A stretch of DNA of 64,000 nucleotides from Candidatus Amesbacteria bacterium (GCA_027331445.1 DAHWUD010000002.1:77018-141017), one strand, 5' to 3'. Positions 5,662-59,188 are shown, counted from the first letter of the stretch. Notes: a model not told the origin generated them from the sequence alone. Program-made: numbers and translations.

Positions 5662-7863
5662 ATGCTTAAGTCTTTTTTAAAGGGCTTTTATCCCGCGGCC
5701 CGCCTACTTTCATCAATTAAATTCCGCCGTCCCCCCAAATCTTTTTTTGTGGTTTTTTTTCTTCTCCTGCTGCTGTCCGTTTTCTCCGTCTTCACTTATT
5801 TCTATGTCTTTAAGGATCTGCCCTCGCCCCAGTCCCTCGCCACCGTTCCCCTTCCCCTGACCACTCATATCCGCGATAGAAACGGAGTTGAACTTTACAA
5901 AATATACAGTAATCAAAACCGCACCCTGGTTAAACTGTCAGACCTGCCTCCCTACCTGCGGGAAGCCGTCATCAGCATCGAGGACAAGGACTTCTATCAC
6001 AACCGGGGTTTTTCTGTCCCGGGCATTATCCGCGCCCTCTACTCCAATCTCGCCTGCTCCGTCGACAAAAATCAATGTTCCCTGCAGGGTGGTTCCACCA
6101 TCACCCAGCAATTGGTCAAAACTTCCCTTCTCTCTCCCGAAAGAACCATCCGCCGCAAACTTCGCGAGTTGGTTCTCTCTGTCATCGTCGAATCTCTCTA
6201 TTCCAAAGATCAGATCCTGGAAATGTACTTAAACCGCGTCAGCTTCGGCGGTTCCTCTTATGGCATTGAAGAAGCCTCCCAGACTTACTTTGGCCTCCCC
6301 GCCTCGCAGCTCGACCTGGCCCAATCCGCCCTCCTGGCCGGATTGCCCGCTTCCCCCACCACCTATTCCCCCTTCGGCAGTCACCCGGACTTAGCCAAAG
6401 CCCGCCAGCAGGAAGTCCTTCGCCGTATGGTCCAGGATGGCTATATTACCTGGGACCAGGCCCAATCTGCCAGCGCCGAAGACTTGAAATTCAAACCCCC
6501 GGGAGGCACCATCCTCGCTCCCCACTTCGTCATGTATGTCAAAGAGCTCCTGGCCCAAAAATATGGCTCCGACGTGGTCGAACAGGGCGGCTTAGACGTC
6601 ACCACCTCACTGGATTTATCCACCCAGGAATTAGCCCAGCAGGTCGTCTCCCAGGAAATCGCCAAAATTCAGTATTTGCATATTACCAACGGCGCAGCCT
6701 TGGTCACCCGGCCGGCTACGGGTGAAATTCTCGCCATGGTCGGCTCCCGCGACTATTTCGATATCGCTCATGACGGGAATGTCAATGTCACCCTTTCCCC
6801 CCGCCAGCCCGGTTCTTCTATTAAACCGGTTAATTATTCTCTGGCCTTCAGCCGGGGCTTTACCCCGGCCAGCATTATCGACGATTCCCCCATCACTTAT
6901 TCCACTCCCGGCCAGCCCCCGTACACCCCCATCAACTACGACAACCGCTTCCATGGCCGGGTAACTTTAAGAACCGCCCTGGCTAATAGTTACAATATCC
7001 CCGCCGTAAAACTGGAAGCCGCCAATGGCGTTGTTAACATGGCTGCCCTGGGCCAAAAAATGGGCATTACCACCTGGACCGATCCTTCCCGCTTCGGCCT
7101 GGCCCTGACTCTGGGCAGTAATGAAGTCACCATGGCCGACATGGCCGTAGTTTATGGGGTCCTGGCCAACAGCGGCGCCCGGGTTGACCTCCATCCCATC
7201 CTCTCCGTTAAAGATTCTCAGGGCCATGTCCTGGAAGAACTCCGTTGTCCCACTAAATCGGAGGCCTCCCTGACATCTGCCCTCTTTTTTCCGCCGGTTC
7301 TGGCTGCCCAGGCCTCGGCCACGGAAATTACTTCCTGTCCCAGCGAGCAGGTCATCTCCCCCGGCGTAGCCTTCCTGGTTACCGACATTCTTACCGATAA
7401 CACCGCCCGTACCCCTACCTTCGGCGCCAATTCCCTTCTCAAAATTCCCGGCCACACCGTCGCCGTTAAAACCGGCACCACCAACAACCTGCGCGACAAC
7501 TGGACCATTGGCTTCACCCCCAATATCCTGGTCGCGGCCTGGGTGGGTAACAATGACAATACCCCCATGAGTTACGTGGCTTCCGGCATCACCGGCGCTT
7601 CCCCTATCTGGAACCGCATCATCACTCCCCTCATCCAAGACCAGCCCGATGCCCCCTTTGTTCCCCCACCCGATATCATCAAAGTCAACGTCTGTACCTT
7701 AACCGGCCAGCTCGCCTGCGGTTCCTGCCCCACCCGCGCTGAATATTTCCTCTCGGGCACCCAACCCCGGACTGCCTGTACGGGCGACCAAATCAAGCAG
7801 ATTTTAGACAAAAGTGCGGCCCCCCGTGATAAACTTCTCAACGGAGCCTCCATTGGCTTCTAG
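5662..7863 (+). CDS. Second class A penicillin-binding protein, tandem paralog
   Basis: EDKDFYHNRGFS, GGSTITQQ, PGSSIKP and KTGTT. Same domain order as the upstream PBP. Confidence 0.9.
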   Translation: MLKSFLKGFYPAARLLSSIKFRRPPKSFFVVFFLLLLLSVFSVFTYFYVFKDLPSPQSLATVPLPLTTHIRDRNGVELYKIYSNQNRTLVKLSDLPPYLREAVISIEDKDFYHNRGFSVPGIIRALYSNLACSVDKNQCSLQGGSTITQQLVKTSLLSPERTIRRKLRELVLSVIVESLYSKDQILEMYLNRVSFGGSSYGIEEASQTYFGLPASQLDLAQSALLAGLPASPTTYSPFGSHPDLAKARQQEVLRRMVQDGYITWDQAQSASAEDLKFKPPGGTILAPHFVMYVKELLAQKYGSDVVEQGGLDVTTSLDLSTQELAQQVVSQEIAKIQYLHITNGAALVTRPATGEILAMVGSRDYFDIAHDGNVNVTLSPRQPGSSIKPVNYSLAFSRGFTPASIIDDSPITYSTPGQPPYTPINYDNRFHGRVTLRTALANSYNIPAVKLEAANGVVNMAALGQKMGITTWTDPSRFGLALTLGSNEVTMADMAVVYGVLANSGARVDLHPILSVKDSQGHVLEELRCPTKSEASLTSALFFPPVLAAQASATEITSCPSEQVISPGVAFLVTDILTDNTARTPTFGANSLLKIPGHTVAVKTGTTNNLRDNWTIGFTPNILVAAWVGNNDNTPMSYVASGITGASPIWNRIITPLIQDQPDAPFVPPPDIIKVNVCTLTGQLACGSCPTRAEYFLSGTQPRTACTGDQIKQILDKSAAPRDKLLNGASIGF

Positions 7864-7868
7864 TCCCT

Positions 7869-8579
7869 ATGTACCAAAAACACACCCTTACGGCTATCGT
7901 TCCCTGTTTCAACGAGGTTTCCCGCATCTCCCGTATCCTCACTCCGCTGGCAGCTTCCCGGTTTGTGGATGAAATCATCGTCGTCGACGACGGCTCGACC
8001 GACCGCACACCCGAATTTGTCCGCCGCTCTTATCCCCGAGTCCACCTCATCCGCAACTCCCGTAACCGCGGCAAGTCTGCCGCCATTTTTAAAGGTGTTT
8101 CCGCCTCCCGCTCCGAGGCCGTCTTTTTCATTGATGCTGACCTCATCGGCCTGACCGCCTCTCACATCGATACTGCCGTCGCCGTCTTTTTTAAAAACCG
8201 CCTGGATATGCTCCTTCTACCTGTCCGAAGTGAGCATTTTAACGTCTACTATCAGGCCGTCGGCTGGAACATCATGGCCACCGGTGAGCGCATCGTCAAA
8301 AAAAGCCTTCTTATTCCCCACCTTCACGCCCCCCTCACCGGCTACGCCCTGGAAATGTTCTTAAACCATCTGGCAGTTATCCACAACTGGAAAACGGATA
8401 TCATCTTTTGGAAACCGGGTCAGCCCGCTCCCGTCAGCCCGTCCAAATCCAAAAAAATCGGCCTGCTTCAGGGTGTCTGGGGCGACATCAAAATGTTAAA
8501 CGAGGTCTTTCATCAGGCCAATGTATTAGAATACCTTAAGGATCTTAATTTCCTGGTCATTCGTAATTCTCATCACTGA
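7869..8579 (+). CDS. Family 2 glycosyltransferase (dolichol/polyprenol-phosphate sugar transferase-like)
   Basis: N-terminal GT-A signature: IVPCFNE...VDEIIVVDDGSTD...FIDADL (DxD). Confidence 0.8.
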   Translation: MYQKHTLTAIVPCFNEVSRISRILTPLAASRFVDEIIVVDDGSTDRTPEFVRRSYPRVHLIRNSRNRGKSAAIFKGVSASRSEAVFFIDADLIGLTASHIDTAVAVFFKNRLDMLLLPVRSEHFNVYYQAVGWNIMATGERIVKKSLLIPHLHAPLTGYALEMFLNHLAVIHNWKTDIIFWKPGQPAPVSPSKSKKIGLLQGVWGDIKMLNEVFHQANVLEYLKDLNFLVIRNSHH

Positions 8580-8580
8580 C

Positions 8581-9702
8581 ATGACAAAAGTTTCCCTTCT
8601 CTATGCCAAATCCGGCGGCGGGCATCTCAGTTTAGCTACAGCAACCGCCCAGGCCCTGGATAAGTACTATCCCGGAAAATTCACTTACACTTTTTTTGAT
8701 CCCTTTCCGGCCATCACCGCCACTGCCTACAAGCGGTTGAGTATCCAGATGCAGCAGCTGTGGAAATTTTCCTACGAGGCCACCAACACCCCTCAATTTT
8801 CTTCTTTCATCCACGACATCACCAACCTCACCCTCACCGACAAGCTCGTCGCCCATTTCAAAAAATACCGTCCGGATATCATCGTTACCAACAATCCCTT
8901 AATTACCACGGAAATGCAATCCGCCCTCACCAAATCCGGCATTACCGCCAAAACCGTGGTCATCTTCGCCGATCCCTTTACCGCCCATGAAACCTGGTTC
9001 AACTATAAAACCGCCGACCTCTATCTTTCCCCCACCCCCGAAGTCACCCGGCTGGCCATCGACCACTACCTTCCCGCCTCCAAGATCCAAACCACCGGCT
9101 GGCTCACCCGGGACCAGTTCATCCCCGGCCCCTGTGACAAAACCACTGCCCGCACTCACCTCGGCCTCAATCCCGGCTTATTTACCGTTTTTGTCGGCGG
9201 CGGAGGTCAGGGCGGCGGTAAGGTTTATGCCGTTTGCGAAGCCATCTTAAGCCACCCTTATCTCCTGTCCCACAGCCAGCTTATCGTCAATACCGGTATC
9301 AATTCCCAACTCGTCACCAAAATCATGAAACTTGCCCAGATTATCCCCTCCTTTTTTTATATCATTCCCCTGGCCCACAATATGCACACCCTTTTAAGTG
9401 CCAGCGACTTAGTCGTCGGTAAAGCCGGACCCAATTTCCTCTTCGAATCCGTCCATACCCTGCGTCCGCTCTTGGCCACCGGCTGCCTTCCCGGCCAGGA
9501 AGAAGGCAACCTGGACTTTATTAGGAAAGCCAAAATCGGCTGGGTCGAGGAAAACCCGGATAAAGCTGCCGCTTTAATTGACAAAATTGCCCGCCGCCCC
9601 GATTCCTTAGCCGCTTTTACTCCCCGCCTCCGGGAGGTTAAATCCCAAAATATTGATTCCGCCAGGCATATCGCCGACGCCGTCGCCGGATTAGTCCTAT
9701 GA
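8581..9702 (+). CDS. GT28-family glycosyltransferase (MGDG synthase / UgtP-like diacylglycerol glycosyltransferase)
   Basis: N-terminal SGGGH motif (YAKSGGGHLS). Architecture matches MGDG synthase N- and C-domains. Confidence 0.75.
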   Translation: MTKVSLLYAKSGGGHLSLATATAQALDKYYPGKFTYTFFDPFPAITATAYKRLSIQMQQLWKFSYEATNTPQFSSFIHDITNLTLTDKLVAHFKKYRPDIIVTNNPLITTEMQSALTKSGITAKTVVIFADPFTAHETWFNYKTADLYLSPTPEVTRLAIDHYLPASKIQTTGWLTRDQFIPGPCDKTTARTHLGLNPGLFTVFVGGGGQGGGKVYAVCEAILSHPYLLSHSQLIVNTGINSQLVTKIMKLAQIIPSFFYIIPLAHNMHTLLSASDLVVGKAGPNFLFESVHTLRPLLATGCLPGQEEGNLDFIRKAKIGWVEENPDKAAALIDKIARRPDSLAAFTPRLREVKSQNIDSARHIADAVAGLVL

Positions 9703-23348: not shown

Positions 23349-24113
23349 TTAGCCCCTAAATGTCAAAAACCACACCGCCGCGATAATTATTCTGTACCCG
23401 GCAAATCCCTCCCAGCTTCTCTTTTGTAAATTGGCGATCAGCCACTTCACTGATAGCCACGCCACGACAAATGCGATTGCAAACGCCAGGATGAGCAGCC
23501 CCCACTCTCCCCCGGTAAATTTCCAGCTGCTTTTGACTACATCCAGTCCCGTCGCCGCCACCATCGTCGGCACCGCCAGCCAGAATGACATCTCCACCGC
23601 CGCTTTGCGCGATAGTCCCAACCCCATGCCTCCATATACTGTCGCCGCCGACCGGGACACTCCGGGAATCATTGCTAGGGCCTGGGCCACTCCGATTCCC
23701 GCCGCCTGCACCAGGCTTAGATCGTCTACTTCTTTTGTCCCTATCGGGCCTTTCTTCTCCCACCACAGCATCACTAACCCTCCGACCACCAGCGCCACCA
23801 TGGCTATATGCGCGTTTCCCAGCAGATAATTCTTCACAATCTTATAAAAAATCAGCCCCAGTATTCCCGTCGGTACAAACCCAGCAATTAATATCCCCCA
23901 CAACTTCTTGTCCCTCCCCACTCTCACAGCGTACATCCCCACCACCGCCAGCATTGCCCCCAGTTGAATAATAATTTCAAAGCTTTTTACAAATTCCGTC
24001 TGCAATACTCCCATCCACCCTGAAACCATTACCAAATGCGCCGTCGAGGAAATCGGCAAAAACTCCGTAAACCCCTCCACTACGGCCAAAATCATCGCCT
24101 GAAAATAATTCAT
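23349..24113 (-). CDS. uppP: Undecaprenyl-diphosphatase
   Basis: EGFTEFLPISSTAH and PGVSRSAAT signature motifs. 8 TM. Confidence 0.9.
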   Translation of the reverse strand: MNYFQAMILAVVEGFTEFLPISSTAHLVMVSGWMGVLQTEFVKSFEIIIQLGAMLAVVGMYAVRVGRDKKLWGILIAGFVPTGILGLIFYKIVKNYLLGNAHIAMVALVVGGLVMLWWEKKGPIGTKEVDDLSLVQAAGIGVAQALAMIPGVSRSAATVYGGMGLGLSRKAAVEMSFWLAVPTMVAATGLDVVKSSWKFTGGEWGLLILAFAIAFVVAWLSVKWLIANLQKRSWEGFAGYRIIIAAVWFLTFRG

Positions 24114-28662: not shown

Positions 28663-29059
28663 CTACTTTCACCCCGAATTTTTCGGCTCTTCTCCTCCCC
28701 TTATCACCCCTCTGGCCGCCCTCCCTCCTCCTTCCCTTCCGCCTCTCCCCTCACCCACATCCCTTCCCCCCTCCGGTGTCACCGCCATTACTCTTTCCGC
28801 CGCCGATATTTCCACCTCTTCTGCCCGGCTTCTCTGGACGCTGGACGGCTACCCCAATTCCGGCTTTGCCGTTTTGGTCTCCACCGCTTCCGCCCCTCTC
28901 TATCCTCCCCGTCCCGGTGATTCCGTTTTTACTCTTCCCGACCCTACCACCCGCACCTACACTCTCCACCGGCCTGCTGTCCCCTTTTATATCCGCATTT
29001 GTGTCCTCCTCTCCTCCGCCACCTGCGATACTTACAGCAACCAAATTTCCCTTCCTTAA
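28601..29059 (+). CDS. Hypothetical secreted protein, FN3-like
   Basis: N-terminal TM, Pro-rich linker, ARLLWTLDGYPNSGFAVLVST resembles a fibronectin-III strand pattern. Confidence 0.4.
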   Translation: MRAWLFPFSILIIVLISLAAIYFHPEFFGSSPPLITPLAALPPPSLPPLPSPTSLPPSGVTAITLSAADISTSSARLLWTLDGYPNSGFAVLVSTASAPLYPPRPGDSVFTLPDPTTRTYTLHRPAVPFYIRICVLLSSATCDTYSNQISLP

Positions 29060-30354
29060 GCCAAAAGTTCCCCCATCCGCTCCTCTGTTCTTTCCGCCGT
29101 TTTCCGGTCCTCCTCAAAAATCACATAGGCTAGCCTGCCCAACTTTAATGTCCTCTCCTCCATAATTACTACTCCTTTATTTTTCTGTTTGTCCCACCTC
29201 ACCGGTTCCAGTCTTGAAATTACCTCCCCCCAACTCATCACTCTTCCCATCTCCCTCCAGTTATTCGACACCACAAAAATCTTCTTTTGAAAATCCCTGC
29301 CGTACAGTTTTTGCGCCAGTATAAATACATGTGTCCCTCCCGTCCGTCTCACATTTGATTCTGTCACATACAATTTTCCCGATTTCCCCGCCACAAAATC
29401 CACGTCAAAATATCCCCGGTAGCCTTTTGCCGCATATTTTTTTCCTAACCACCTGACCGTTTCTTCAATTTTTTTCTCGACCTCTCCCGGCAGTACTCCC
29501 GCCCCGATTTCCATCCCCGCAAACTCGCCTTTCCTCGTCACCCGCATTCCGCAACTGTACAAAAATTCCGTCTCCCCCGTCTTTCTCACTACCATCTCCC
29601 CGCTGGGGAATCCTCCGCCTATTTTCTCCTCTGCCTCGATCCACTCCTCCACCACCAGGGGAAATAATTTCCAGTAGTCATTTTTTGCCAGCTCTTCGGC
29701 GATCTTTTTTTCCGCGCCTTCCGCTTCTTCTTTTCTCACTATCAGCACCCCCATCCCCGAATGTGCCTTGTTCGTCTTTATCACCACCCCTTTTCCTGCC
29801 CGCAATTTTTCCTTGGCCGCTTTTATAGCCGTATTTACACTCCGGCAAACCACTCCCGGGGCCATCTCTACCCCCCATTGGCGAATCCCCGATTTGCTGC
29901 CGAAATTATCCACTACCCATCCGTCTTTCTCTTCCGGGGCCTCCGGCGTAGCCACTTCCACTCCCTCACTGCGCAACGCCCTCACCAGATTATAAAACCC
30001 TTTCGATACGCAATAACTGACCAGATTTATCCCCCCGTGTTTTCTTCCCAAAAACCCCAGTCTTTCCCGAAATCTTTCATCACCTATTATACTCTGGCAT
30101 ATCAATCCGTTTCTCACCTCCGGCACCCATACCTGTACCCGATCTCCCCGGATTTCCTCCGCGTATTTTATAAATTCTGCCGCTACCGGCCGGGGGCAGA
30201 TTGCCACCGCTTCCCCCTCCCGCAGACACCAAATTTCCCGATCCCCCAGACTCGCATTCTCATCGATTTCTCTTTCCCGTACTCCCTCATCCGAAATCGC
30301 CTGAATAAACGGCCACACGTCTTCCGACATGTTAAAAATATCAACTGTCACCAT
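29056..30354 (-). CDS. ATP-grasp family ligase of unknown substrate (N-terminal pre-ATP-grasp-like domain + ATP-grasp)
   Basis: KGVVIKTNKAHSGMGV (B-loop/ATP-binding Lys region) and DVDFV...LYVTESNVRRTGGT (Mg/ATP-binding E-x-N-x-R motif). Confidence 0.7.
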   Translation of the reverse strand: MVTVDIFNMSEDVWPFIQAISDEGVREREIDENASLGDREIWCLREGEAVAICPRPVAAEFIKYAEEIRGDRVQVWVPEVRNGLICQSIIGDERFRERLGFLGRKHGGINLVSYCVSKGFYNLVRALRSEGVEVATPEAPEEKDGWVVDNFGSKSGIRQWGVEMAPGVVCRSVNTAIKAAKEKLRAGKGVVIKTNKAHSGMGVLIVRKEEAEGAEKKIAEELAKNDYWKLFPLVVEEWIEAEEKIGGGFPSGEMVVRKTGETEFLYSCGMRVTRKGEFAGMEIGAGVLPGEVEKKIEETVRWLGKKYAAKGYRGYFDVDFVAGKSGKLYVTESNVRRTGGTHVFILAQKLYGRDFQKKIFVVSNNWREMGRVMSWGEVISRLEPVRWDKQKNKGVVIMEERTLKLGRLAYVIFEEDRKTAERTEERMGELLA

Positions 30355-30399
30355 TCATTTAATATACAGCATTCGGCCGGCATTTCATTTATTGATTTC

Positions 30400-30428
30400 T
30401 TGACAACTTTTCTTCCGGGCCTTAATGT
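30400..30428 (+). promoter_or_regulatory. Sigma70-like promoter (TTGACA - 17 nt - TAATGT) for the tasA-like gene, with a strong RBS AGGAGGTG at 30554-30561
   Basis: Near-consensus -35 and an acceptable -10. AGGAGGTG sits 7 nt before the TTG start at 30569. The ~140-nt leader contains three direct TCTCGT(T/A) repeats. Confidence 0.4.
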
Positions 30429-30568
30429 CAACTCAGTCTCGTTGTTAATTCGACTTTTAGCCACAAGTTGAAACGTTTCATCCTGGTCTCGTTATCGTTA
30501 GCCTCTCGTAGTTAACCAAACGCCGCATTTTCTGCGATGTTTTTTTGACCGAAAGGAGGTGAACAAAT

Positions 30569-31365
30569 TTGAAACGTATCCTATTAGGGTTGCTCGTTAC
30601 CGGAACGGTCGCCGGCGTCGCCACTCTGGCCACCAACGCCTTCTTTACCGACACCGCCACTTCCACAGGTGACACCCTTCAGGCCGGTAATCTGAAGTTG
30701 CAGGTCAAAAGCGACTGTAGCTACGACGGTATCGCCAGCGCCTCAGGCTGCGGAACTTTTGACTACACCAATGGCGTCTTGGACAAGTTCTTCAATTTCC
30801 AGGACGTTAAACCCGGAGATTATGGTGAGAACACCATTTCTTTCGAGGTCCTCAACAATCCCGCCTGGATGTGCGCCAATCTCGCCTTTAGTCCTGTCGG
30901 GGACATTGCCAATTACCTGCAGGTTTTCTGGTGGGTAGACAGCGACGGGGATAACGTCTACCAGAACTCAGAGAGCATTCTCTACCCCACGGGGGATATA
31001 CTTTCAGAACTCTCCATGACTGGTTAGCTCTGGGGGCCAAGTTCCCCACACCGCCAACGGCAAACTCACCCCCTCTGACCTTTGCCGACTCGTCCTGGAA
31101 TTGGGTTAGTGGTAAATCTTTTGAACCTATCCCCGCCGGCACCGAGCAACATCTGGGAGTCGGTTGGTGCTTTGGAAAAATCACCTTGGACTCTACTAAA
31201 CCGGCGGGGTTTTCCTGCGACGGATCCGGCGACCAGAACAGTGCTCAGGGAACAAGCGTGGTCGGTGATTTATCTTTCAACATTTCCCAGTCCAAAAATC
31301 AACCCACTTTCCTTTGTCCCGAAAGCCAGTTGATCAATCGTCCGCCGTTGACGCCAACACCCTAA
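30569..31365 (+). pseudogene. TasA/camelysin-like secreted protein with SipW-cognate-type signal peptide; reading frame broken near 31000-31027
   Basis: Frame 2 (TTG start 30569 to TAG 31027) encodes MKRILLGLLVTGTVAGVATLATNAFFTDTATSTGDTLQAGNLKL...DVKPGDYGEN, which is TasA N-terminal-like. Frame 1 (about 31030-31365) encodes GWCFGKITL...DQNSAQGTSVVGDLSFNISQ, which is TasA C-terminal-like. Together they make about 265 aa, like TasA. Confidence 0.55.
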
Positions 31366-31436
31366 GCTTTTTTCACCCTCTGCCCGGGTGAAGGACAGCT
31401 CACTGGCCCTGTAGGAATTCGGGGCTAGTCAGCTGT

Positions 31437-32588
31437 ATGAGTAAAGTTGTCAAAATCATCTCCGACGTTTTGTTCATCACCGGCCTTCTCATCGCCGGAT
31501 TAATTCTTGTCAGCCGCTTTACTTCCTTCCATCCCCTCCGGATTTTCGTCGTCTCCTCCGGCTCCATGACCCCCGCCATTCCGACAGGTAGTATCGTGGT
31601 CACCGTTCCCCAAACGCACTACCGAGTCGGCGATGTGGTCACTTTTTATACCGGCAACGATAACAAAACTACCACTACCCACCGCCTGGTCGCCCTCGGT
31701 GACGGCGTCATCAGAACTGCTGGTGACGCCAACTCCCAGCCCGACCCCGCCCTCACCCCCGCTTCCCAAATCATCGGCCGGGTTTACTCCTCCCTGCCTT
31801 TTGTCGGCTATCTCGCCGGTTTCGCCCAAACCCCCCGGGGTTTTATCCTCCTGGTTATCGTCCCCGCCACCATTATCGTTTACGAAGAACTCAGGGGCAT
31901 GTTTGCGGAATTTAAAAAGCATTTAAAAAATCTCCCCTCTCCGAAATTTTGGAGAGAGGCCGGAGGTGAGGCGGCAAACCCCGCCATTATCCTCCCCGTC
32001 ATTTTCGGAGGCCTTATTTTCTTTACCTTCTCTGGTTCCTTCTTTACCGACACCGCCACCAGTACCGGCAATTCCTTTACTGCCTGGATCCCCACCCCCC
32101 CACCCCTTCTTCATCTGGTCATCAACGAAGTTTCCCCCACCGGAAGAGATAAAAACGAGTGGGTTGAACTTTTTAATCCGACTAATTCATCCATAAATAT
32201 TAGTGGTTGGAAAATTGCCGACGCCTTAACAGACGACACTTTTCCTGCAACCACTTCAGCCATTCCCGCTAATGGGTTCGCTGTCCTCATCGGCAATAAT
32301 AGTAATGTCTCGGGTATTCCCCCGTCTGCCCTAAAAATCACTCTCACCAACGCCACAATCGGCAGCGGCCTAAACGATAGCGGTGATACCGTAACCCTCA
32401 AAAATCCCGCAGATTCAGTTATTGATCAAATGAGCTATGGCAATGCTTCACCTTCGGCCTTCCCCTCACCTCCTGCAGCCCCCAATTCGGGAAAAACTGT
32501 CTCCCGGCATCCTAACGGGGTGGATACCGACACCTCTTCCAACTGGCTGACTAATACAAGTCCCACCCTGGGCACCGCCAATCCATGA
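31437..32588 (+). CDS. SipW-type signal peptidase I (S26B, archaeal/ER-like) fused to an internal SipW-cognate-type cleavage motif and a lamin-tail domain (LTD)
   Basis: aa 1-150: TM, SGSMTP (catalytic Ser), THRLV (His), C-terminal TM. aa 180-200: extra TM. aa 200-216: SGSFFTDTATSTGNSFTA, nearly identical to the N-terminus of the upstream tasA-like precursor. aa about 228-340: LTD (LVINEVSPTGRDKNEWVELFNPTNSSINISGWKIAD...GDTVTLKN). Confidence 0.75.
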   Translation: MSKVVKIISDVLFITGLLIAGLILVSRFTSFHPLRIFVVSSGSMTPAIPTGSIVVTVPQTHYRVGDVVTFYTGNDNKTTTTHRLVALGDGVIRTAGDANSQPDPALTPASQIIGRVYSSLPFVGYLAGFAQTPRGFILLVIVPATIIVYEELRGMFAEFKKHLKNLPSPKFWREAGGEAANPAIILPVIFGGLIFFTFSGSFFTDTATSTGNSFTAWIPTPPPLLHLVINEVSPTGRDKNEWVELFNPTNSSINISGWKIADALTDDTFPATTSAIPANGFAVLIGNNSNVSGIPPSALKITLTNATIGSGLNDSGDTVTLKNPADSVIDQMSYGNASPSAFPSPPAAPNSGKTVSRHPNGVDTDTSSNWLTNTSPTLGTANP

Positions 32589-33451
32589 CTCAAAAAATCA
32601 TCACCGTCTTTCTTGTCATTACTGGTGTAGTTTTGATCGGCATCGCCCGGGCCGGTATCTCTCCCGTTGATTTCACCACTTCCGCCAAATCCGTCGGCGA
32701 TCTCACCGTCACCTGGCAAACCTCTCCCTTGTTTTACGTCGTCAATCTACTCCCCGGCGATACCACCCCGTCAAAAACCATCACCATCTCCAATGGCAGC
32801 CCCTCCCCCATCCCCTTGGGCCTCCGGGGCATAATTACCACCCCGCCGACTGATCCCGCCTTTACCGACCAGTTGATTTTAACCGTTACCCAAAATTCCG
32901 CTCCTGTCTGGTCCGGCTCTCTCACCCAATTTTTCCATACCCCCGGATTTGTTAATTTTGGCCTTCTCCCCAGCCGCGCCACCGCCACCTATCAATTTCA
33001 GGTCCGCTTCAGTTCCGCTGCCGATAGTCGTTACCAAAACGACCTGGTCGTCTTTTCCCTCTCCGTGGGTTACGGCGTGAATATCCCCGAACTCTGCCGC
33101 CGCATCGCCGCCCGGCCGGACGTCGAATACATTTTCGTTACCGGTAAAAATGCCAATATCACCGGTACCAACCACCCGGATATTATCTTTGGTCTCGACG
33201 GTAACTACAAGATCGAAGGCGGCAACGCTGACGACTGCATCGTCGTCGGCAACGGCAACAACCGTATTCATGGCAACAACGGTAATGACATCATCATTGC
33301 CGGCAACAATGATATCTACGGTAACAATGGCAATGATTACATTTCCGTCAGCACAGGGACCAATCGCATCGATGGCGGCAATGGTACCAACACCTGCCTC
33401 TCTGCCGCCCCCTCACGTACCACCTTCCTCCACTGCTCTCCCAAGAAATAA
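32585..33451 (+). CDS. TasA/camelysin-like domain protein with C-terminal RTX-type calcium-binding repeats
   Basis: N-terminal TM. DFTTSAKSVGDLTVTW...FYVVNLLPGDTTPSKTITISNGS resembles TasA. C-terminus holds GGNADDCIV / GNNGNDIII / GNNGNDYIS / GGNGTNTCL nonapeptide repeats. Confidence 0.6.
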   Translation: MTQKIITVFLVITGVVLIGIARAGISPVDFTTSAKSVGDLTVTWQTSPLFYVVNLLPGDTTPSKTITISNGSPSPIPLGLRGIITTPPTDPAFTDQLILTVTQNSAPVWSGSLTQFFHTPGFVNFGLLPSRATATYQFQVRFSSAADSRYQNDLVVFSLSVGYGVNIPELCRRIAARPDVEYIFVTGKNANITGTNHPDIIFGLDGNYKIEGGNADDCIVVGNGNNRIHGNNGNDIIIAGNNDIYGNNGNDYISVSTGTNRIDGGNGTNTCLSAAPSRTTFLHCSPKK

Positions 33452-33472
33452 GGAAACCCACCACGTGACCAT

Positions 33473-33494
33473 TAAAAAATCCCCTCTCGGGGAT
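33473..33494 (-). terminator. Rho-independent terminator for the pilin gene (stem ATCCCC-tctc-GGGGAT followed by T6 on the minus strand)
   Basis: Located 25 nt downstream of the pilA-like stop, between convergent genes. Confidence 0.5.
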
Positions 33495-33518
33495 CTTCAT
33501 CCTGAGCTTTTCGAAGGA

Positions 33519-33986
33519 TTACCTGGTTACTGAGATATTCGGATCCAACTCCCCCGCCGGAGCCGCTACTGTGATCCTGCTGTTGGCAGCACTTCTCACG
33601 ATGGTGTAATTCGTATCCCATGCTGCAGCAGAACAGGAAGCAACGGGCAAACCATTATTGGTAAGAGGATCCACCGGCAACGCCGCCAAGTAGTCTGACA
33701 CCAAACTCGTACACAGATTCGGCATATTTGTACTGTTAATATCGGTCACTGTCGTCGTAATCTCCCCCCCGCCTGGCAACAAACCTTTGTGATCTGCCGC
33801 ATACTGGTGGACCGCATTCAATAAAGCGTTTACGTCACTCCGCCTCTTGGTGTCGTTTGCCTGGGAAAACTGTCTCGCCGGGTTAATAGCAATCAGCACG
33901 ATCGTCAGTAACACTGCCAACACTCCAATAACCACCAGCAGCTCGATCAAGGTAAAGCCTCTTTTCATCCGGGCAGGATAATTCAT
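33519..33986 (-). CDS. Type IV pilin (prepilin with class III signal; major pilin candidate)
   Basis: MNYPARMKRG|FTLIELLVVIGVLAVL shows the canonical G/FTLIE cleavage-methylation motif. 155 aa. Last gene of the pilus operon. Confidence 0.85.
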   Translation of the reverse strand: MNYPARMKRGFTLIELLVVIGVLAVLLTIVLIAINPARQFSQANDTKRRSDVNALLNAVHQYAADHKGLLPGGGEITTTVTDINSTNMPNLCTSLVSDYLAALPVDPLTNNGLPVASCSAAAWDTNYTIVRSAANSRITVAAPAGELDPNISVTR

Positions 33987-34027
33987 TAGTACTAGCGTAA
34001 ACCATATCCTAAGTCCTTGTCAAGGGG

Positions 34028-35095
34028 TTACTTTCCCACAACCAGCACAATATCAAAACCCGATGAGGCACTTTCCGTTGCATTTACCGTGCTCCACGTT
34101 TTTTTCAGCTCATCAGTCATCACCTTCCTGAATGTTTCCGGTACTTTAGCTGAAAATGTCACCGCCGCCCCGACGGTCGCCGGCCCGTTCCCGGTCGTGA
34201 TGTTGGCTATCCCCCACGCCCGCAGTTTGGCCTCCCACGACGCCGCCATCCCGTGCACCGCCGTTCCGTTTAACACCTGCGCCGACAGCGCCTGCACCTG
34301 GGCAGCCGAATAAGTCGCCGCCTCCGGCGTCGGACTGGCTATCATTTCCACCATTACCGTCGGCACCGGCCCCAGATTTATCACTCTGGGCCTCGGCTTC
34401 TTCCTGGTCAATGTCATAATGGCCACCGCAATACATCCCGCTACTACCGCCAGGACCAAAATTACCACCATTATTTTATGCTTCTCCAGCCACGCCTCCT
34501 CTTTATTAGAAAACGACTCATCCTCCGCTCCCCCGCCCGAAAAACTGCTCTCCGTCACCACATCCAGTTTTCGGTAAATTACCCTGCACGATTCCCCAGA
34601 AAATTGCGGCGGCGCATTAATCGTCGTCAGCACAAACCCCGGCACCACCGACATCAGGGGAAACTGCAGCTTCTCAAATACCTGCTGCAATGTTTCATAC
34701 AAATCCCGGTTTATCGCCACCAGTTTAAATCCGTTCCCTACCCGGAATAGTTTTGAAGATACTGCCGAAAACGGCACCGTATCTATAAATTTCTGCACTT
34801 CTTCCATTGGCGGCTGCTCCGGCCCGGGGTACGTCTTTTCAAAACATACCGACTCCTCCAGGATAATTACCAAAGGCGTCGGTTTAATCTTATTTTGCAC
34901 CACGAAATCCTGCAGTTTCGTTCTCAATACCTCTTTATTAATCACCTCCAGGTCAGAAATCATCTCCGGGGTGAATGCAAACACCACCGGCTCCAGATTA
35001 GACTTTGTGCATAAAGACAACCTCTCCCTGGACACGTCTACTACGATCGGAACTGTTTTGACTGATTTTGTTTTTACGGCCATATTTCCTGCCAC
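34028..35095 (-). CDS. Bitopic membrane protein with C-terminal LytR_C domain, embedded in the pilus operon
   Basis: Cytoplasmic N-domain, one TM (IMVVILVLAVVAGCIAVAIM), C-terminal VLNGTAVHGMAASWEAKLRAWGIANITTGN...DIVLVVGK (LytR_C pattern). Confidence 0.5.
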   Translation of the reverse strand: MAGNMAVKTKSVKTVPIVVDVSRERLSLCTKSNLEPVVFAFTPEMISDLEVINKEVLRTKLQDFVVQNKIKPTPLVIILEESVCFEKTYPGPEQPPMEEVQKFIDTVPFSAVSSKLFRVGNGFKLVAINRDLYETLQQVFEKLQFPLMSVVPGFVLTTINAPPQFSGESCRVIYRKLDVVTESSFSGGGAEDESFSNKEEAWLEKHKIMVVILVLAVVAGCIAVAIMTLTRKKPRPRVINLGPVPTVMVEMIASPTPEAATYSAAQVQALSAQVLNGTAVHGMAASWEAKLRAWGIANITTGNGPATVGAAVTFSAKVPETFRKVMTDELKKTWSTVNATESASSGFDIVLVVGK

Positions 35096-35442
35096 GAACT
35101 TACCCCCAACACTCCCTGGTTATAAGTCGTGGTCACTTGCACTTCCCGGGTAAAATTCCCCACCGTCCCGGTGGATGTGATAACAGGATTCGACCCGGCT
35201 ACAGTAATTGTGGCGGTCCCCGACCCCACTGTCAATGTCCCCCCGGTATATGCCGGGTTTCGGAGGAGCAATAATAGCGCATTCTCCGCCCCGGATTCAG
35301 CCACAGCCAGTGCCGTCTCCCCCTGCTCCCACTTTGACGCCATTTGCGAATTGGCAATGATCACCACTACCGCCGCCGAGGTAATCATGATCGCCATTGC
35401 CATAAAAATCAGCAGTAGTACCAGCGTTTGACCTTTTTTCAT
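35074..35442 (-). CDS. Pseudopilin / minor pilin-like protein (non-canonical N-terminus, PilX-like)
   Basis: MKKGQTLVLLLIFMAMAIMI hydrophobic N-terminus with Gly-Gln in place of Gly-Phe. 122 aa. Inside the pilus operon. Confidence 0.5.
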   Translation of the reverse strand: MKKGQTLVLLLIFMAMAIMITSAAVVVIIANSQMASKWEQGETALAVAESGAENALLLLLRNPAYTGGTLTVGSGTATITVAGSNPVITSTGTVGNFTREVQVTTTYNQGVLGVSSWQEIWP

Positions 35443-45987: not shown

Positions 45988-46932
45988 CTAGCGGGCATTT
46001 AAGTCATTGTCAAGCCCAAACATCTCCCCTGCCGGGAAAAACAGCGTGTCGGCGATAGTCGGCACGTCCGCCGCCAGCATGATGACGCGGTCCATCCCCA
46101 CGGCCATCCCCGCGCACTCCGGCAACCCCGCCTTGAGCGCCTCGATAAAGTCCTCATCCATCCCGAAATCTCTACCCTGTAACTCATTTTTAAACCTGGC
46201 TTCTTGTTCCGCCGCATCCGTCAGTTCCGAAAACGCATTTCCCAGTTCCACCCCCGCCAGAAATACTTCGAATCTTTCCGCAAATCTGGGGTCGTCCTTC
46301 TTTTTCCGGGACAAACTCGCTTGTTCTGCTGGATAATCATATACAAAGGCTGGCTTTCTGCTCTCCCGCAACCGGGGCTCAATCTCGTTATAAAACTTGA
46401 GGTTAAATTCCGGCTCAGGAAGCCCCATCAGCCCCAATTCCTCGCAGCTGTACCTGGGCCACGGCCGACTCAGATCATATTCTTCACCCTGGTATTTCAT
46501 TTTTTCCGCCCCGATAATTTTGACGAACAAATTCTCAAAATCCCCCATAATCTTTCTATAGTCAGCCTCCTTCCGGTACCATTCCAAAATCGTAAATTCC
46601 GGACTGTGCCAGGCCGACACCTCTTCCCCGTTACGAAACGCCCGCGTAATCTCAAATACATTTCCCATCCCCGCCGCCAGTAACTTTTTCAAACTGAACT
46701 CCGGACTCATGATCAAATACCCTGCCCGCTTTATTCTCCGGCCCGTAACAAGTTGTGTTTCAAACGGCTCCAGATTCGGTTCCGCCGACGGCACCGGCAC
46801 CAGAACCGGCGTCTGCACCTCGGCAAACCCCTGTTCCTTAAACCAGTTTCTCATCCCGTCGATTACCTTCTCCCGTACCAGATATTTTTCCCTCAGCCTG
46901 GGGTCGTTTCGTATTTTCTGCCACGTTTTCAT
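45988..46932 (-). CDS. epmA: EF-P lysine aminoacylase EpmA (PoxA/GenX; truncated class II LysRS paralog)
   Basis: 314 aa. Class II aaRS motifs (FEITRAFRNGE; GMAVGMDR). Lacks an anticodon-binding domain. Adjacent to efp. Confidence 0.85.
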   Translation of the reverse strand: MKTWQKIRNDPRLREKYLVREKVIDGMRNWFKEQGFAEVQTPVLVPVPSAEPNLEPFETQLVTGRRIKRAGYLIMSPEFSLKKLLAAGMGNVFEITRAFRNGEEVSAWHSPEFTILEWYRKEADYRKIMGDFENLFVKIIGAEKMKYQGEEYDLSRPWPRYSCEELGLMGLPEPEFNLKFYNEIEPRLRESRKPAFVYDYPAEQASLSRKKKDDPRFAERFEVFLAGVELGNAFSELTDAAEQEARFKNELQGRDFGMDEDFIEALKAGLPECAGMAVGMDRVIMLAADVPTIADTLFFPAGEMFGLDNDLNAR

Positions 46933-55848: not shown

Positions 55849-56703
55849 ATGCAGCTCTCCGACTTAGCCACCGTCTGCTCCCCCAATTGGTGCCCCGGCT
55901 GCGGCGACCTGGCCATTTGGGGCGCCTTTAAAAGTGCTTGTGTCAGCGAGGGTTGGGACAGTACCAATACCGCCCTGGTTGCCGGTATCGGCTGTCATGG
56001 CCACCTTTTAAACTTCACCAAACTCGTCTCCTTCGAGGGTTTGCACGGCCGGGCCATCCCCCTGGCCTTCGGCCTCAAAATGTCCAATCACCGCCTCAAT
56101 GTCTTTGTCTTTACCGGTGACGGAGACTGTCTGTCCGAAGGCGGCAATCACTTTATTCACGCCTGCCGCCGCAATCCCAATCTCAAGATCTTTATCCACG
56201 ACAACGCCATTTATGGCTTAACTACCGGCCAAACCTCTCCTACCTCTCCCTTGGGTTTCAAATCCAAATCCACCCCCGAAGGCAACGCCGATTTTCCCCT
56301 CAATCCTCTGGCCCTGGCCATTGCCTCCGGCGCCACTTTCGTCGCCCGCGGCTACGCCGGCGATATTCCCGGCCTTTCTGCCCTCATGATCAAAGCGCAG
56401 CAGCATCAGGGCCTGGCCGTTGTGGACATCCTCCAACCCTGCGTCACCTTCAACAAGGAATACACTCATACTTTTTATCGCGAAAACACCTATCAGTTAG
56501 ACGGGTCATACCAGCCTACCGACAAAATCGCGGCTTTCCAAAAAGCCCAGGAATGGGGTCTCAAAAGTATTCCCCTGGGTATTTTCTACGCCGTCGATTC
56601 CCCCACTTATGAATCCCGTTTTCCCCAAATTGCCGCCACTCCCCTGGTCGATCATTCCCCGGACAGGCCGGATCTTTCCGGATTGTTCCGCAAATTCGTC
56701 TAA
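55849..56703 (+). CDS. 2-oxoacid:ferredoxin oxidoreductase beta subunit (TPP-binding)
   Basis: CPGCGD and GDGD TPP motifs. 284 aa. Confidence 0.9.
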   Translation: MQLSDLATVCSPNWCPGCGDLAIWGAFKSACVSEGWDSTNTALVAGIGCHGHLLNFTKLVSFEGLHGRAIPLAFGLKMSNHRLNVFVFTGDGDCLSEGGNHFIHACRRNPNLKIFIHDNAIYGLTTGQTSPTSPLGFKSKSTPEGNADFPLNPLALAIASGATFVARGYAGDIPGLSALMIKAQQHQGLAVVDILQPCVTFNKEYTHTFYRENTYQLDGSYQPTDKIAAFQKAQEWGLKSIPLGIFYAVDSPTYESRFPQIAATPLVDHSPDRPDLSGLFRKFV

Positions 56704-57278
56704 CTTTGTTTTTCTCTCACTCCGTACTTTTCCCAAAATACCATCTCTCCGATCGGCTTTCTGTTTTCTTCATTATGCGGTACCGGACTTCCCCGGATAT
56801 GTCCCAGTGCCAGACTCCCGATCACCACCTGTTCCCGCGGGATTTCCAGCGTCAAATATGTCGTCTCTCTATCCATCGTCACCCAGCACGCCCCGATCCC
56901 CAGGCTCCACGCCGCCAGCCACATGTCTTGTAACGCTGCCGCCGCCGCGTATTCATACTGGTTATGTTCAGCTAGCCAAACGATCAGCTCTTTTCGTTCC
57001 TGGTTTTGCACCTCCTGCTCCGTCATTACCTGTTTTTCCGTGCTCACCACAATGCATACTTTGGCAGATCGCATGAAGCCTCCCTCTTTCGCCGTCTGCG
57101 CGAGCGTCTGTATGGTTTCCGGCTTTTTTACCACCACCAGGTGCCAAGGTTGGGAATCCAGCGGGCTGGGTGACCACCGCCCCGCCTCCAGAATTTGTGC
57201 CAACATTTCATCACCCACTTCCTCTTCCGTCCACGCCCGTACCGACCGCCGGGATTTTATGGCCTCGATTACTTCCAT
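56700..57278 (-). CDS. Nitroreductase family protein
   Basis: IKSRRSVRAWTEE N-terminus. 192 aa. Confidence 0.75.
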   Translation of the reverse strand: MEVIEAIKSRRSVRAWTEEEVGDEMLAQILEAGRWSPSPLDSQPWHLVVVKKPETIQTLAQTAKEGGFMRSAKVCIVVSTEKQVMTEQEVQNQERKELIVWLAEHNQYEYAAAAALQDMWLAAWSLGIGACWVTMDRETTYLTLEIPREQVVIGSLALGHIRGSPVPHNEENRKPIGEMVFWEKYGVREKQS

Positions 57279-57624: not shown

Positions 57625-58524
57625 ATGTCTAAAGGTTACCTTCTCGCCGCCGCCGCCGCCCTCATTTCCGGCGTTTCCATTTTTCTCAACAAATACGCTG
57701 TTACCGCCATTGTCCAGCCCTTAGTCTTTACCGCCGTCAAAAACTCCCTCGTCGCCCTCCTCATCCTGGCTCTGATCTTCGCCTCCGGTAAATGGCGCGG
57801 GGTTAAACAGCTTAGCCGCCGGCAGCTGCTGCTTCTGCTCGCCATCGGTATTATCGGCGGCTCCCTGCCTTTCTATCTCTTCTTTACCGGCTTGTCCCTC
57901 ATTCCCGCAGTCACCGGGGCCATTATTCAAAAGACTTTGGTGGTTTGGGTCGCCCTGCTGGCTTTTCCCTGGCTCAAAGAAAAGCTCTCCCCCGCCCACT
58001 GGGCCTTGGTCGTGCTCCTCTTTGCCGCCAACATCGCCGTCGGCGGTTTTCCCGGATTTAAACTCTCTATAGGAGAGCTGTTTGTCCTTCTGGCCACTCT
58101 CCTCTGGGCCGTAGAAACCATCCTCGCCAAACTCGTCCTCCCCCGTGTCGACCCGGACTTGGTCACTGCCGCCAGAATGGTCCTGGGATCGGCCATTTTA
58201 TTGACCGTCTCCGCCGTCGCCCAGCCCGCCGCCCTCCTGCATGTGTCCGCTCTGACTCTCACTCAGTGGTCATGGATCATTCTCACCGCCGTTACCTTAC
58301 TGCTTTATGTCACCACCTGGTATCGCGCCCTGAAATTTGCTCCCGCCACCGCCGTCACTGCCATTCTGGTCGCCTCCACTCTGGTTACCAATGTTCTCTC
58401 CGCCGTTTTCGTCACCCATTCTCTCTCCCGCCCCCTCGCCGTCCAGTCCCTGGCTATCGCCGCCGTCGTCGTCGCCTTTAGCCTTCTGCCTCTAGCACGG
58501 CCTCGCTCCACCGTTTCAGGTTAG
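57625..58524 (+). CDS. EamA/DMT superfamily transporter (10 TM)
   Basis: 299 aa with two EamA-like halves. Confidence 0.75.
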   Translation: MSKGYLLAAAAALISGVSIFLNKYAVTAIVQPLVFTAVKNSLVALLILALIFASGKWRGVKQLSRRQLLLLLAIGIIGGSLPFYLFFTGLSLIPAVTGAIIQKTLVVWVALLAFPWLKEKLSPAHWALVVLLFAANIAVGGFPGFKLSIGELFVLLATLLWAVETILAKLVLPRVDPDLVTAARMVLGSAILLTVSAVAQPAALLHVSALTLTQWSWIILTAVTLLLYVTTWYRALKFAPATAVTAILVASTLVTNVLSAVFVTHSLSRPLAVQSLAIAAVVVAFSLLPLARPRSTVSG

Positions 58525-59188
58525 CTTCCTCCCGCTCCGTCAATATTTTCACCGCCTGCTTCCAGTGCACAGCTACCGTCTCCCCTACTTTTACCCCCGG
58601 CAACATCTCTTCCCTATATTTATATTTCCCCTCCAAAACAGTCAGCTTTTTTTTACCTTTCATTTTGGCCAAACTGATCAGATTTACCGTTAACCGGGCC
58701 CGGCCTACCTCCGTCACTTTTCCCCACCGGATCATGCAGTTGTTGATCGTCTCCATATTAAACGGCACCGACCCGCTGGCCCGCCCCACTCCCACATGCA
58801 GCACCTGGAACAAATGACAGGGAATAAATTTTTTGGGTTTATCCCTCTCCAATTCCGCCACCAGCCACTCCGGCACCCCCTGCTTGGCCAAATTCGAAAG
58901 TAGTAGCTTGTAATGCTCTCCCTTTGCCTTCTTCAGTTCCTCATTTCCCAGCCAGTACGCCTCTACCCCGGCATAACTCAGCTTATCCTTTCCGGTCACC
59001 GCTGTGAGTGTCTCCAGATAGGGGTTTAATACGATAAATTTACCCACTTCCTTCGCAATTCCCTCGCACGCTCCCTTTTCTATACATTCCCGAAACTTGG
59101 CAGGTGCCGTTCCCCGCCCGCAGTACCCCAGACTATTCGGCGGCAGTGCGAATCGGGCCGCCAGTTGTAATGCTTTTTTCTCCGCCAT
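58478..59188 (-). CDS. Hypothetical Cys-containing protein downstream of the hydrogenase genes
   Basis: 236 aa. YCGRG...C...C cluster near the N-terminus. No recognised domain. Confidence 0.45.
   Translation of the reverse strand: MAEKKALQLAARFALPPNSLGYCGRGTAPAKFRECIEKGACEGIAKEVGKFIVLNPYLETLTAVTGKDKLSYAGVEAYWLGNEELKKAKGEHYKLLLSNLAKQGVPEWLVAELERDKPKKFIPCHLFQVLHVGVGRASGSVPFNMETINNCMIRWGKVTEVGRARLTVNLISLAKMKGKKKLTVLEGKYKYREEMLPGVKVGETVAVHWKQAVKILTEREEANLKRWSEAVLEAEG

Follow-up and report, generated by a model that had tools for sequence, protein, structure and literature searches.

Whether bacteria of the candidate phyla radiation (CPR, or Patescibacteria) build TasA-type fibres, and what a SipW-like signal peptidase fused to a lamin tail domain (LTD) might contribute to them, are the questions raised by a three-gene locus in a 64,000-nucleotide (nt) stretch of DNA from Candidatus Amesbacteria bacterium (GCA_027331445.1 DAHWUD010000002.1:77018-141017). 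We refer to this whole stretch as the window, count positions from its first letter and base our view of this genome on its 64 kb only. The locus comprises three successive open reading frames (ORFs) on the + strand within 30569-33451, designated g1 (30569-31027), g2 (31437-32588) and g3 (32585-33451), the start of g3 overlapping the stop of g2 (ATGA). CPR bacteria account for a large part of bacterial diversity, live mostly attached to other cells and, to our knowledge, almost nothing has been described of their surface structures beyond type IV pili.

We propose, with a probability of roughly 0.7, that this is a TasA/SipW donor-strand-exchange fibre operon in its Microgenomates (CPR) form, in which the SipW-like peptidase frees its own passenger. 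A first-pass annotation of the same DNA had pictured a dedicated module for the secretion and processing of a fibre or adhesin, and the conserved operon reported below agrees with that picture. TasA homologues in Patescibacteria had previously been noticed only as part of a Pfam distribution (PMC9245690), and full-text literature searches returned nothing on a SipW-LTD fusion, on SipW in the CPR or on a relevant LTD in Patescibacteria.

A signal peptidase joined to a predicted substrate

The middle gene, g2 (31437-32588, +), encodes a protein of 383 amino acids (aa) that profile matches divide into a SipW-like signal peptidase I and an LTD passenger. The peptidase module (aa 1-160; 31437-31916, +) has its catalytic domain between the first two transmembrane (TM) segments and matches TIGR02228, the archaeal/endoplasmic reticulum (ER)-type signal peptidase I family, with 81.1 bits over aa 7-150 (cutoff 51.85). 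Against the Bacillus SipW equivalog NF046067 it scores 72.6 bits, under a cutoff of 190; the protein looks SipW-like in its working and, by the NCBI criterion, is not a SipW orthologue. Its catalytic residues are retained, S43, H82 and D97 being invariant and D103 nearly invariant across 44 aligned fusions. Hydropathy places hydrophobic segments at aa 3-31 (TM1), 132-153 (TM2) and 179-204 (TM3), with a K/R-rich loop before the third, a layout that would be expected from the end-to-end joining of sipW with the signal peptide of the next gene.

From aa 179 to 201, ending in SGS, the third segment has the makeup of an internal signal peptide and, together with the donor-strand-type segment behind it, spans 31971-32084 (+). 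SGS is followed at aa 202-216 by FFTDTATSTGNSFTA, a donor-strand-type segment of the same kind as that of g1. Across the 44 aligned fusions (31-55% identical) the third helix leads into [ST]x[SA] and then, past the predicted cleavage point, into [FY]F[ST]DxExSxGNx[FL]xA; the in-register fusions have S or A at P-1 and S or T at P-3, and N212 of g2 is nearly invariant. A profile-profile comparison (hhalign) of the SipW::LTD linker segment with the c-region and donor strand of the g1 family gave a probability of 94.3% (E 9.6e-8). The lamin tail domain itself follows at aa 226-335 (32112-32441, +; PF00932, 68.1 bits, E 1e-18, cutoff 34.3). Because the motif in g2 makes up a complete internal signal peptide with its donor strand, the protein is, as judged from its sequence, a peptidase fused to its own substrate, a point that the first-pass annotation did not make.

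When the window is translated in six frames, the decapeptide at this junction, FFTDTATSTG, is found at two places and no others, near the N-terminus of g1 (nt 30641) and in g2 (nt 32040, residue 202). The two copies are encoded differently at four of the ten codons, which means that the identity is kept at the protein level. The first-pass annotation had assigned the motif to all three genes, which holds for g1 and g2; g3 lacks FFTD and bears at its N-terminus only a degenerate relative, GISPVDFTTSAKSVGDL. The concern voiced there that the motif might prove ubiquitous is not borne out by these two occurrences in the window. Among the relatives, the passenger motif is nearer to the TasA-like motif of its own locus than to those of other loci (0.545 vs 0.504; permutation p 0.0013, or 0.011 when the window is left out).

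The fusion is present in at least 16 related loci and in about 60 database proteins, and the same TM-plus-motif linker also joins SipW to passengers other than the LTD in two pairs of loci (L016/L029 and L018/L022). These fusions lie at 7800-8855 (L016), 5723-6772 (L029), 4030-4998 (L018) and 7935-9029 (L022); one such passenger is a Cys/His-containing domain (…HxAGRxDxPANxxTL…GHEEDYxGPC), and another ends in …KFWxSAVGGGQVLRSVxVS.

Operon conservation among related loci

Related loci were collected by scanning one genome per species, starting from a 12-sequence alignment. The 36 loci obtained carry titles that mostly denote metagenome-assembled genomes (MAGs) of the Microgenomates group, the remainder being labelled only as Patescibacteria or with other taxon names, and the closest of them is Ca. 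Amesbacteria. Hidden Markov models (HMMs) of the g1, g2 and g3 families were run on all ORFs of these loci, 35 of which were scored. TasA-like genes, in one to three copies, stand directly upstream of sipW in 30 of the 35, a g3-type gene stands directly downstream in 22, and 20 loci have both; SipW is fused to the LTD in 16. The order of one to three TasA-like genes, sipW with or without a passenger, and a TasA-like::RTX gene is a recurrent operon among the relatives.

One locus (L040) holds the same components in unfused form, as genes for a Peptidase_M73 protein (197 aa), SipW (210 aa), an LTD protein (218 aa) and an RTX protein (365 aa). The LTD gene of this operon starts 2 nt past the sipW stop and encodes an N-terminal SipW-type signal peptide. 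A sortase gene (PF04203; L040 7441-8010, -) is found two genes downstream of this tasA-sipW-LTD-RTX array. The closest SipW relative (64% identity) belongs to Ca. Amesbacteria MFD00709 (L035, 247-9604), where the tasA-like and sipW genes are split into many short ORFs, reflecting either an indel-rich long-read assembly or a heavily decayed locus.

The TasA-like proteins on either side of the peptidase

The first gene, g1, is probably a member, now frameshifted, of the TasA/camelysin family of fibre subunits (30569-31365, +), as assessed by tblastn, profiles and a structure model. Frame 0 extends from a TTG start at 30569 to ~31006 and runs into a stop at 31025-31027 after 152 codons, and the coding sequence continues in frame +2 from ~31006 to 31365; the ORF is not intact. 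Searching with five intact relatives (among P0122-P0127), tblastn splits cleanly into these two frames with a junction at ~31003-31010 (+), consistent with the loss of 1 nt. The junction lies outside any long homopolymer and has no slippery heptamer, and programmed frameshifting was rejected on the latter ground. The truncated 152-aa product is on record from three assemblies (NCBI, ENA and Logan), and an independent 3.6-kb Logan contig (L001) differs from the window by 4 substitutions and 0 gaps; we take the frameshift as real for these reasons.

Once repaired, g1 (265 aa) can be aligned along 96-99% of its length, with 45-59% identity, to intact Patescibacteria proteins of 250-266 aa. Its own match to PF12389 (Peptidase_M73) reaches 12.9 bits, under a cutoff of 22.5, and is limited to the N-terminal 50 residues, and 49 of 50 aligned members of its family match this Peptidase_M73/camelysin model at E<=0.01 (best E 6.4e-10), the matches spanning the signal peptide and first strands only. 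We also compared the family to an alignment of authentic TasA/CalY proteins built from a B. subtilis TasA query that is 99% identical to the entry 'biofilm matrix protein TasA'. The two profiles align with 97% probability (E 1.1e-10, 75 columns) over the signal peptide, the post-cleavage segment and the NLKPGD strand. The profile similarity to TasA or peptidase M73 on which the first-pass annotation had staked its reading is thus present in the g1 family.

At its N-terminus, g1 has a SipW-type signal peptide (aa 1-24, ...LATNA) followed on the mature protein by a donor-strand-type segment (aa 25-39, FFTDTATSTGDTLQA), together covering 30569-30685 (+). This region aligns by hhalign to TasA residues 1-46, with LATNA and the ensuing FFTDTATSTGDTLQAGNLKL placed opposite TWA and AFNDIKSKDATFASGTLDL of TasA; its match to the SipW-cognate signal model TIGR04088, at 17.4 bits, falls just short of the cutoff of 19. 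For the closest intact homologue, an AlphaFold2 model (predicted local distance difference test, pLDDT, 85) has as its top Foldseek match in the PDB the TasA fibre 8aur_A, solved by cryo-electron microscopy (E 1.1e-4, probability 0.99, 227 columns), with low template modelling (TM)-scores of 0.27-0.30, and the model lends moderate fold-level support to g1 as a TasA protein. The label of tasA-like pseudogene originally given to g1 stands in so far as the gene is frameshifted and its family matches the TasA profile, with that moderate degree of support at the level of fold.

The last gene, g3 (32585-33451, +; 288 aa), combines a TasA-like domain with RTX repeats according to profiles and an AlphaFold2 model (pLDDT 90; helix 2-22). 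The beta-sandwich domain (aa 31-167; 32675-33085, +) is indicated by hhalign and by the model, and the g3 family aligns to authentic TasA/CalY with 97.0% probability (E 1.2e-10) over 132 columns and TasA residues 35-228, taking in both the NLKPGD motif and the NKYQG C-terminal strand, so that the similarity extends across the fold. The g3 and g1 families align with each other at 94%; direct matches to PF12389 are found in 3 of 48 g3-family members, and Foldseek returns only weak, generic beta-sandwich matches in the PDB for the g3 model (AbpA 7ueg, E 8.6e-3). Calcium-binding RTX nonapeptide repeats occupy aa ~185-275 (33137-33409, +), where PF00353 scores 32 bits (cutoff 23) and the model has a short-strand repeat pattern compatible with a beta-roll; they are present in 48 of 48 family members. 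The initial description of g3 as a TasA-like protein with C-terminal RTX repeats was therefore sound.

After a predicted cleavage between ARA and G, the mature N-terminus of g3 would have the same length as the donor-strand segment of TasA. We abandoned the idea that g3 is an end subunit that offers only a groove and no donor strand, as 13 residues precede its (S/V)G(T/D)L strand, just as in TasA. Five g3-type relatives from other CPR lineages have no RTX repeats (L013 2748-3419(-), L024 6110-7471, L025 5243-6163, L027 2185-3249 and L032 3942-5003) and have at their C-terminus a hydrophobic helix with basic residues behind it, which looks like a membrane anchor; this likely anchor hints that the g3 family may provide the cell-proximal subunit. 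Each family has four invariant or nearly invariant cysteines, C102, C197, C213 and C247 in the g1 family (P0122 numbering) and C171, C218, C271 and C284 in g3, and extracellular disulfides are likely in both. The g3 family also conserves the C-terminal motif CxxGExxxxCE(L/I).

Promoter, leader and ribosome-binding site

A promoter-like site, TTGACA-17 nt-TAATGT, precedes the locus at 30400-30428 (+), with a perfect -35 element and a -10 element that matches the consensus at 3 of 6 positions; the promoter scanner did not call it. It had been singled out as the only near-consensus sigma70 promoter of the window, a claim that does not hold, since TTGACA-N16-18-TAnnnT occurs four times there against 0.7 expected, once directly upstream of the pilin gene. 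A promoter at 30400-30428 is plausible, though not unique. In its favour, 13 of 23 loci have a TTGACA in the 250 nt that precede their first tasA-like gene, where chance would give about 0.09 per locus.

The predicted 5' leader of ~135 nt (30429-30568, +) contains TCTCGTW at 30437, 30487 and 30504. A riboswitch or structured leader was considered and dropped, a permissive scan of 30300-33700 having found no Rfam family and leader folding having given a z-score of -1.0. At 30554-30561 (+), 7 nt before the TTG start of g1, lies the Shine-Dalgarno sequence AGGAGGTG, the best among 60 ORFs of the window, most of which have no match; the sole near rival is a 7-mer before 35074-35442(-), and the earlier view that the window holds a single strong Shine-Dalgarno stands. 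The first tasA-like gene is preceded by AGGAGGTG or GGAGGTG in L002, L003 and L009, and by the shorter GGAGGT in L011.

A -10-like hexamer (TAnnWT) ends 4-11 nt before the start codon at 17 of 58 ORF starts of the window, against a background of 4%; examples are the gene starts of 3244, 12624, 23349-24113, 29056-30354, 45988-46932, 56700-57278 and 58478-59188. From this pattern, leaderless mRNAs seem frequent in the organism, which would make a leader as long as that of g1 exceptional. The pilin gene (33519-33986, -) has TTGACA-N18-TACGCT directly upstream of it (33994-34023, -), and the -10 ends ~8 nt short of the ATG, pointing to a transcript without a leader.

Proposed mechanism

In the mechanism that we put forward, the sigma-70-type promoter, long leader and strong Shine-Dalgarno would drive all three genes. 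The g1 product would be the major subunit of the TasA family, polymerising by strand exchange, and would be inactivated in this genome by the 1-nt frameshift. The g2 protein is predicted to insert with a cytoplasmic N-terminus and an external C-terminus, which would place both the catalytic domain and the passenger on the outer side of the membrane, where the former could cut after SGS201, in cis or on a neighbouring molecule. The freed LTD module would then start with FFTDTATSTGNSFTA as a new N-terminal donor strand, and might plug the acceptor groove of a TasA-like subunit, nucleating or capping the fibre in the manner of Bacillus TapA. The g3 product would be a minor or specialised subunit whose RTX beta-roll folds in the presence of extracellular Ca2+ and could anchor or tip the fibre.

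Seen in this way, Microgenomates would have a TasA-type fibre operon that is conserved, looks strongly expressed and has an architecture of its own, and the fusion predicts autoprocessing between SGS and FFTD, offering a natural experiment on the chaperone-free nucleation of donor-strand-exchange fibres. A bolder and distinctly speculative extension is that SipW-passenger fusions are obligate self-processing polyproteins, a chaperone-free platform that releases a donor-strand Ig-like (immunoglobulin-like) module for fibres attaching cells. If that were true, the freed module, be it the LTD or another passenger, would nucleate or cap fibres at the membrane position of the peptidase itself, and the fibres and their RTX subunit would attach epibiotic ultra-small bacteria to host cells or surfaces. 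The fusion of an enzyme to its cognate signal-peptide substrate would then amount to an undescribed stoichiometric coupling of processing and fibre initiation.

Alternative explanations

Several observations weigh against our proposal. The SipW::LTD profile gives no direct hhalign alignment with Bacillus TasA, the co-variation between passenger and TasA-like motifs is a small effect, and the gain from a fusion is not obvious if the passenger is always cleaved. For g1, the likeness of the body of the protein to TasA consists of a Foldseek match with low TM-score and of profile matches confined to the N-terminus, and the family HMM, run on all PDB sequences, retrieved chance matches only and no TasA chain. 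Finally, the sole major-subunit gene at the locus is frameshifted, and the system may be non-functional here.

The last point leads to the first alternative, a decaying remnant that makes no fibre and whose g2 and g3 are heading for loss or for another role. The frameshift recurs in the three assemblies and in the contig with 4 substitutions, relatives have one to three intact copies of the TasA-like gene, and the 64-kb window holds no other ORF of the g1 family. Given the frameshift and this absence, the present genome may not make the fibre, and its production is probably impaired unless an intact paralogue exists elsewhere or g3 polymerises alone. We nevertheless regard a remnant as somewhat unlikely: the lesion is single, g2 and g3 are intact with their catalytic residues and repeats preserved, and the promoter, Shine-Dalgarno and translational coupling are intact as well. 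Moreover, the absence of further g1-family genes pertains to the 64-kb window only, and g3, being TasA-like too, has an N-terminal segment as long as the TasA donor strand.

A second alternative concerns g2, whose internal signal peptide might never be cleaved. TM3 would in that case be a permanent anchor and the LTD would stay tethered to a surface peptidase, where it might, for instance, serve in adhesion, position substrates or anchor the fibre to the membrane. The maintenance of the fusion across the loci and database proteins counted above is easier to explain if linkage matters, and some SipW proteins (L004, L021 and L028) bear only short Pro/Thr-rich tails past the motif. We find permanent tethering unlikely all the same, because the fusions, like cleaved substrates, conserve the complete substrate-type motif as well as small residues at P-1 and P-3, and because the unfused versions carry the same segment as an ordinary N-terminal signal peptide. 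Release of the passenger by the peptidase remains our preferred reading of g2.

There is little chance that the g1 frameshift arose through faulty sequencing or assembly and that the organism has an intact gene. Indels do arise in MAG consensus sequences, and the three records may share the same or overlapping read sets; yet the site is not within a long homopolymer, and the same truncated ORF emerges from three assemblies made by different pipelines, one of which has 4 substitutions elsewhere and no gap.

Regulation offers a further alternative, according to which a SinR/XRE-type repressor would use the TCTCGT repeats of the leader as its operators, on the model of the Bacillus tapA operon, an analogy drawn in the first-pass annotation. 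The three repeats reported there do exist: 3 of the 7 TCTCGTW copies in the window fall within a span of 74 nt, the first of them where transcription is predicted to begin, and two of them extend to 11/12 identity (TCTCGTTGTTAA and TCTCGTAGTTAA). The arrangement is statistically ordinary, as 8-9% of 140-nt stretches, real or simulated, contain some complex 6-mer at least three times, and none of 22 related leaders has TCTCGT ahead of its first tasA-like gene. A SinR/XRE-type regulator was not identified, no genome-wide search for its gene having been made. We rejected the operator on grounds of significance and conservation, and consider the analogy with SinR very doubtful.

That the TasA-like proteins are secreted camelysin-type metalloproteases rather than fibre subunits, as the Pfam name Peptidase_M73 would have it, is scarcely credible, given that the TasA and AbpA structures are donor-strand-exchange fibre subunits (PMC9674648, PMC9245690), that the conserved common parts are the donor strand and beta-sandwich core, and that no metal-binding motif stands among the invariant columns of the g1 and g3 family alignments.

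Neighbouring genes and window composition

The operon that faces the locus encodes a type IV pilus, with Pfam matches for pilin N_methyl, PilC/T2SSF and PilB/T2SSE, and is convergent with the locus as first annotated. Between them, at 33475-33498 (-), lies a GC-rich hairpin followed by a U-run. The U-run is on the - strand and there is none on the + strand, so that the hairpin looks like the terminator of the pilin gene, in keeping with the initial remark that the locus ends convergently at that terminator. The significance initially attached to this adjacency did not survive comparison: a pilin motif search found no type IV pilin gene near any of the 36 related loci. We consider the pilus operon an incidental neighbour for that reason, and rejected a functional tie to it. 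Within the pilus operon, 34028-35095 (-) encodes a 355-aa protein with a C-terminal LytR_C domain (23.9 bits) and no recognisable PilM/N/O domain.

The window as a whole (1-64000) has a GC skew, (G-C)/(G+C), of -0.23 to -0.39 in every 4-kb block, whatever the gene orientation. Its ORFs are distributed as 21 on the + strand and 39 on the - strand, and 48 of 51 AGGAGG copies are on the - strand. Extreme disparity between strands in G and C has been reported for some Microgenomates genomes (Ch65: 29.8% C vs 15.0% G; PMC7143001), and the bias of the window matches it.

Comparison with known systems

The closest point of reference is the tapA-sipW-tasA operon of B. subtilis. The donor strand of TasA corresponds there to residues 28-38, the first after cleavage by SipW (PMC9674648), and TapA is an accessory protein with an Ig fold whose N-terminus resembles that donor strand and which nucleates fibres (PMC9674648, PMC10151520). 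The locus described here likewise encodes a dedicated ER/archaeal-type signal peptidase together with TasA-fold substrates, has a donor-strand-type segment as the first residues past the predicted cleavage point, includes an accessory protein that combines a donor-strand-like N-terminus with a complete Ig-like domain (the LTD passenger, in place of TapA), and has tightly coupled or overlapping genes. The LTD passenger has the sequence features of a TapA-like nucleator and may be a functional analogue of TapA, to which it has no homology.

The differences are nonetheless considerable. The gene order is another one; the accessory protein is fused to the peptidase via its own signal peptide; its Ig-like module is a lamin tail domain and not a TapA fold; the second TasA-like protein has RTX repeats; the peptidase scores far under the SipW equivalog cutoff (72.6 vs 190); no SinR-type regulation is evident; and the host is a CPR bacterium.

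Several TasA paralogues and an accessory protein within a SipW operon are also a feature of sipW-bsaA-bsaB-bsaC in C. perfringens and of sipW-tasA-calY in B. cereus, although neither has a peptidase-substrate fusion nor RTX or LTD modules. In C. perfringens the accessory adhesion-type protein BsaC has a vWA domain, and heteropolymers formed by donor-strand exchange have been proposed (PMC11580942). Secretion of the Bsa system has been linked to type IV pilus genes (PMC11580942), whereas the pilus adjacency observed here is not conserved in relatives and indicates no functional link.

The locus falls within the TasA superfamily, which also takes in the archaeal AbpA and AbpX. Archaeal bundling pili (AbpA/AbpB and, more widely, AbpX) share with our proposal TasA-fold subunits and donor-strand complementation, and AbpA (7ueg) is among the fold matches of both the g1-homologue and g3 models. 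Calcium also has a part in the AbpX clade, but at the interface of strand and groove and not in an appended RTX beta-roll. A further difference is that AbpA and AbpB use the general signal peptidase (PMC9245690).

With the RTX proteins of Gram-negative bacteria, type I secreted toxins and adhesins, g3 shares nonapeptide repeats of the GGxGxD type and the Ca2+-dependent beta-roll that they are expected to form. Unlike those proteins it begins with a Sec-type signal peptide, and the repeats come after a TasA-like domain in a chain of 288 aa; it scores 36 bits against RTX_toxin NF033943, where the cutoff is 1000. The eight flanking ORFs searched with Pfam contain no ABC-transporter or membrane-fusion domains that would point to type I secretion, and comprise only pilus, P-type ATPase, ATP-grasp and TspO genes. 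Relative to the known SipW operons, the locus is distinct in its peptidase-substrate fusion, in an LTD that takes a TapA-like position, in an RTX-bearing TasA paralogue and in its CPR host.

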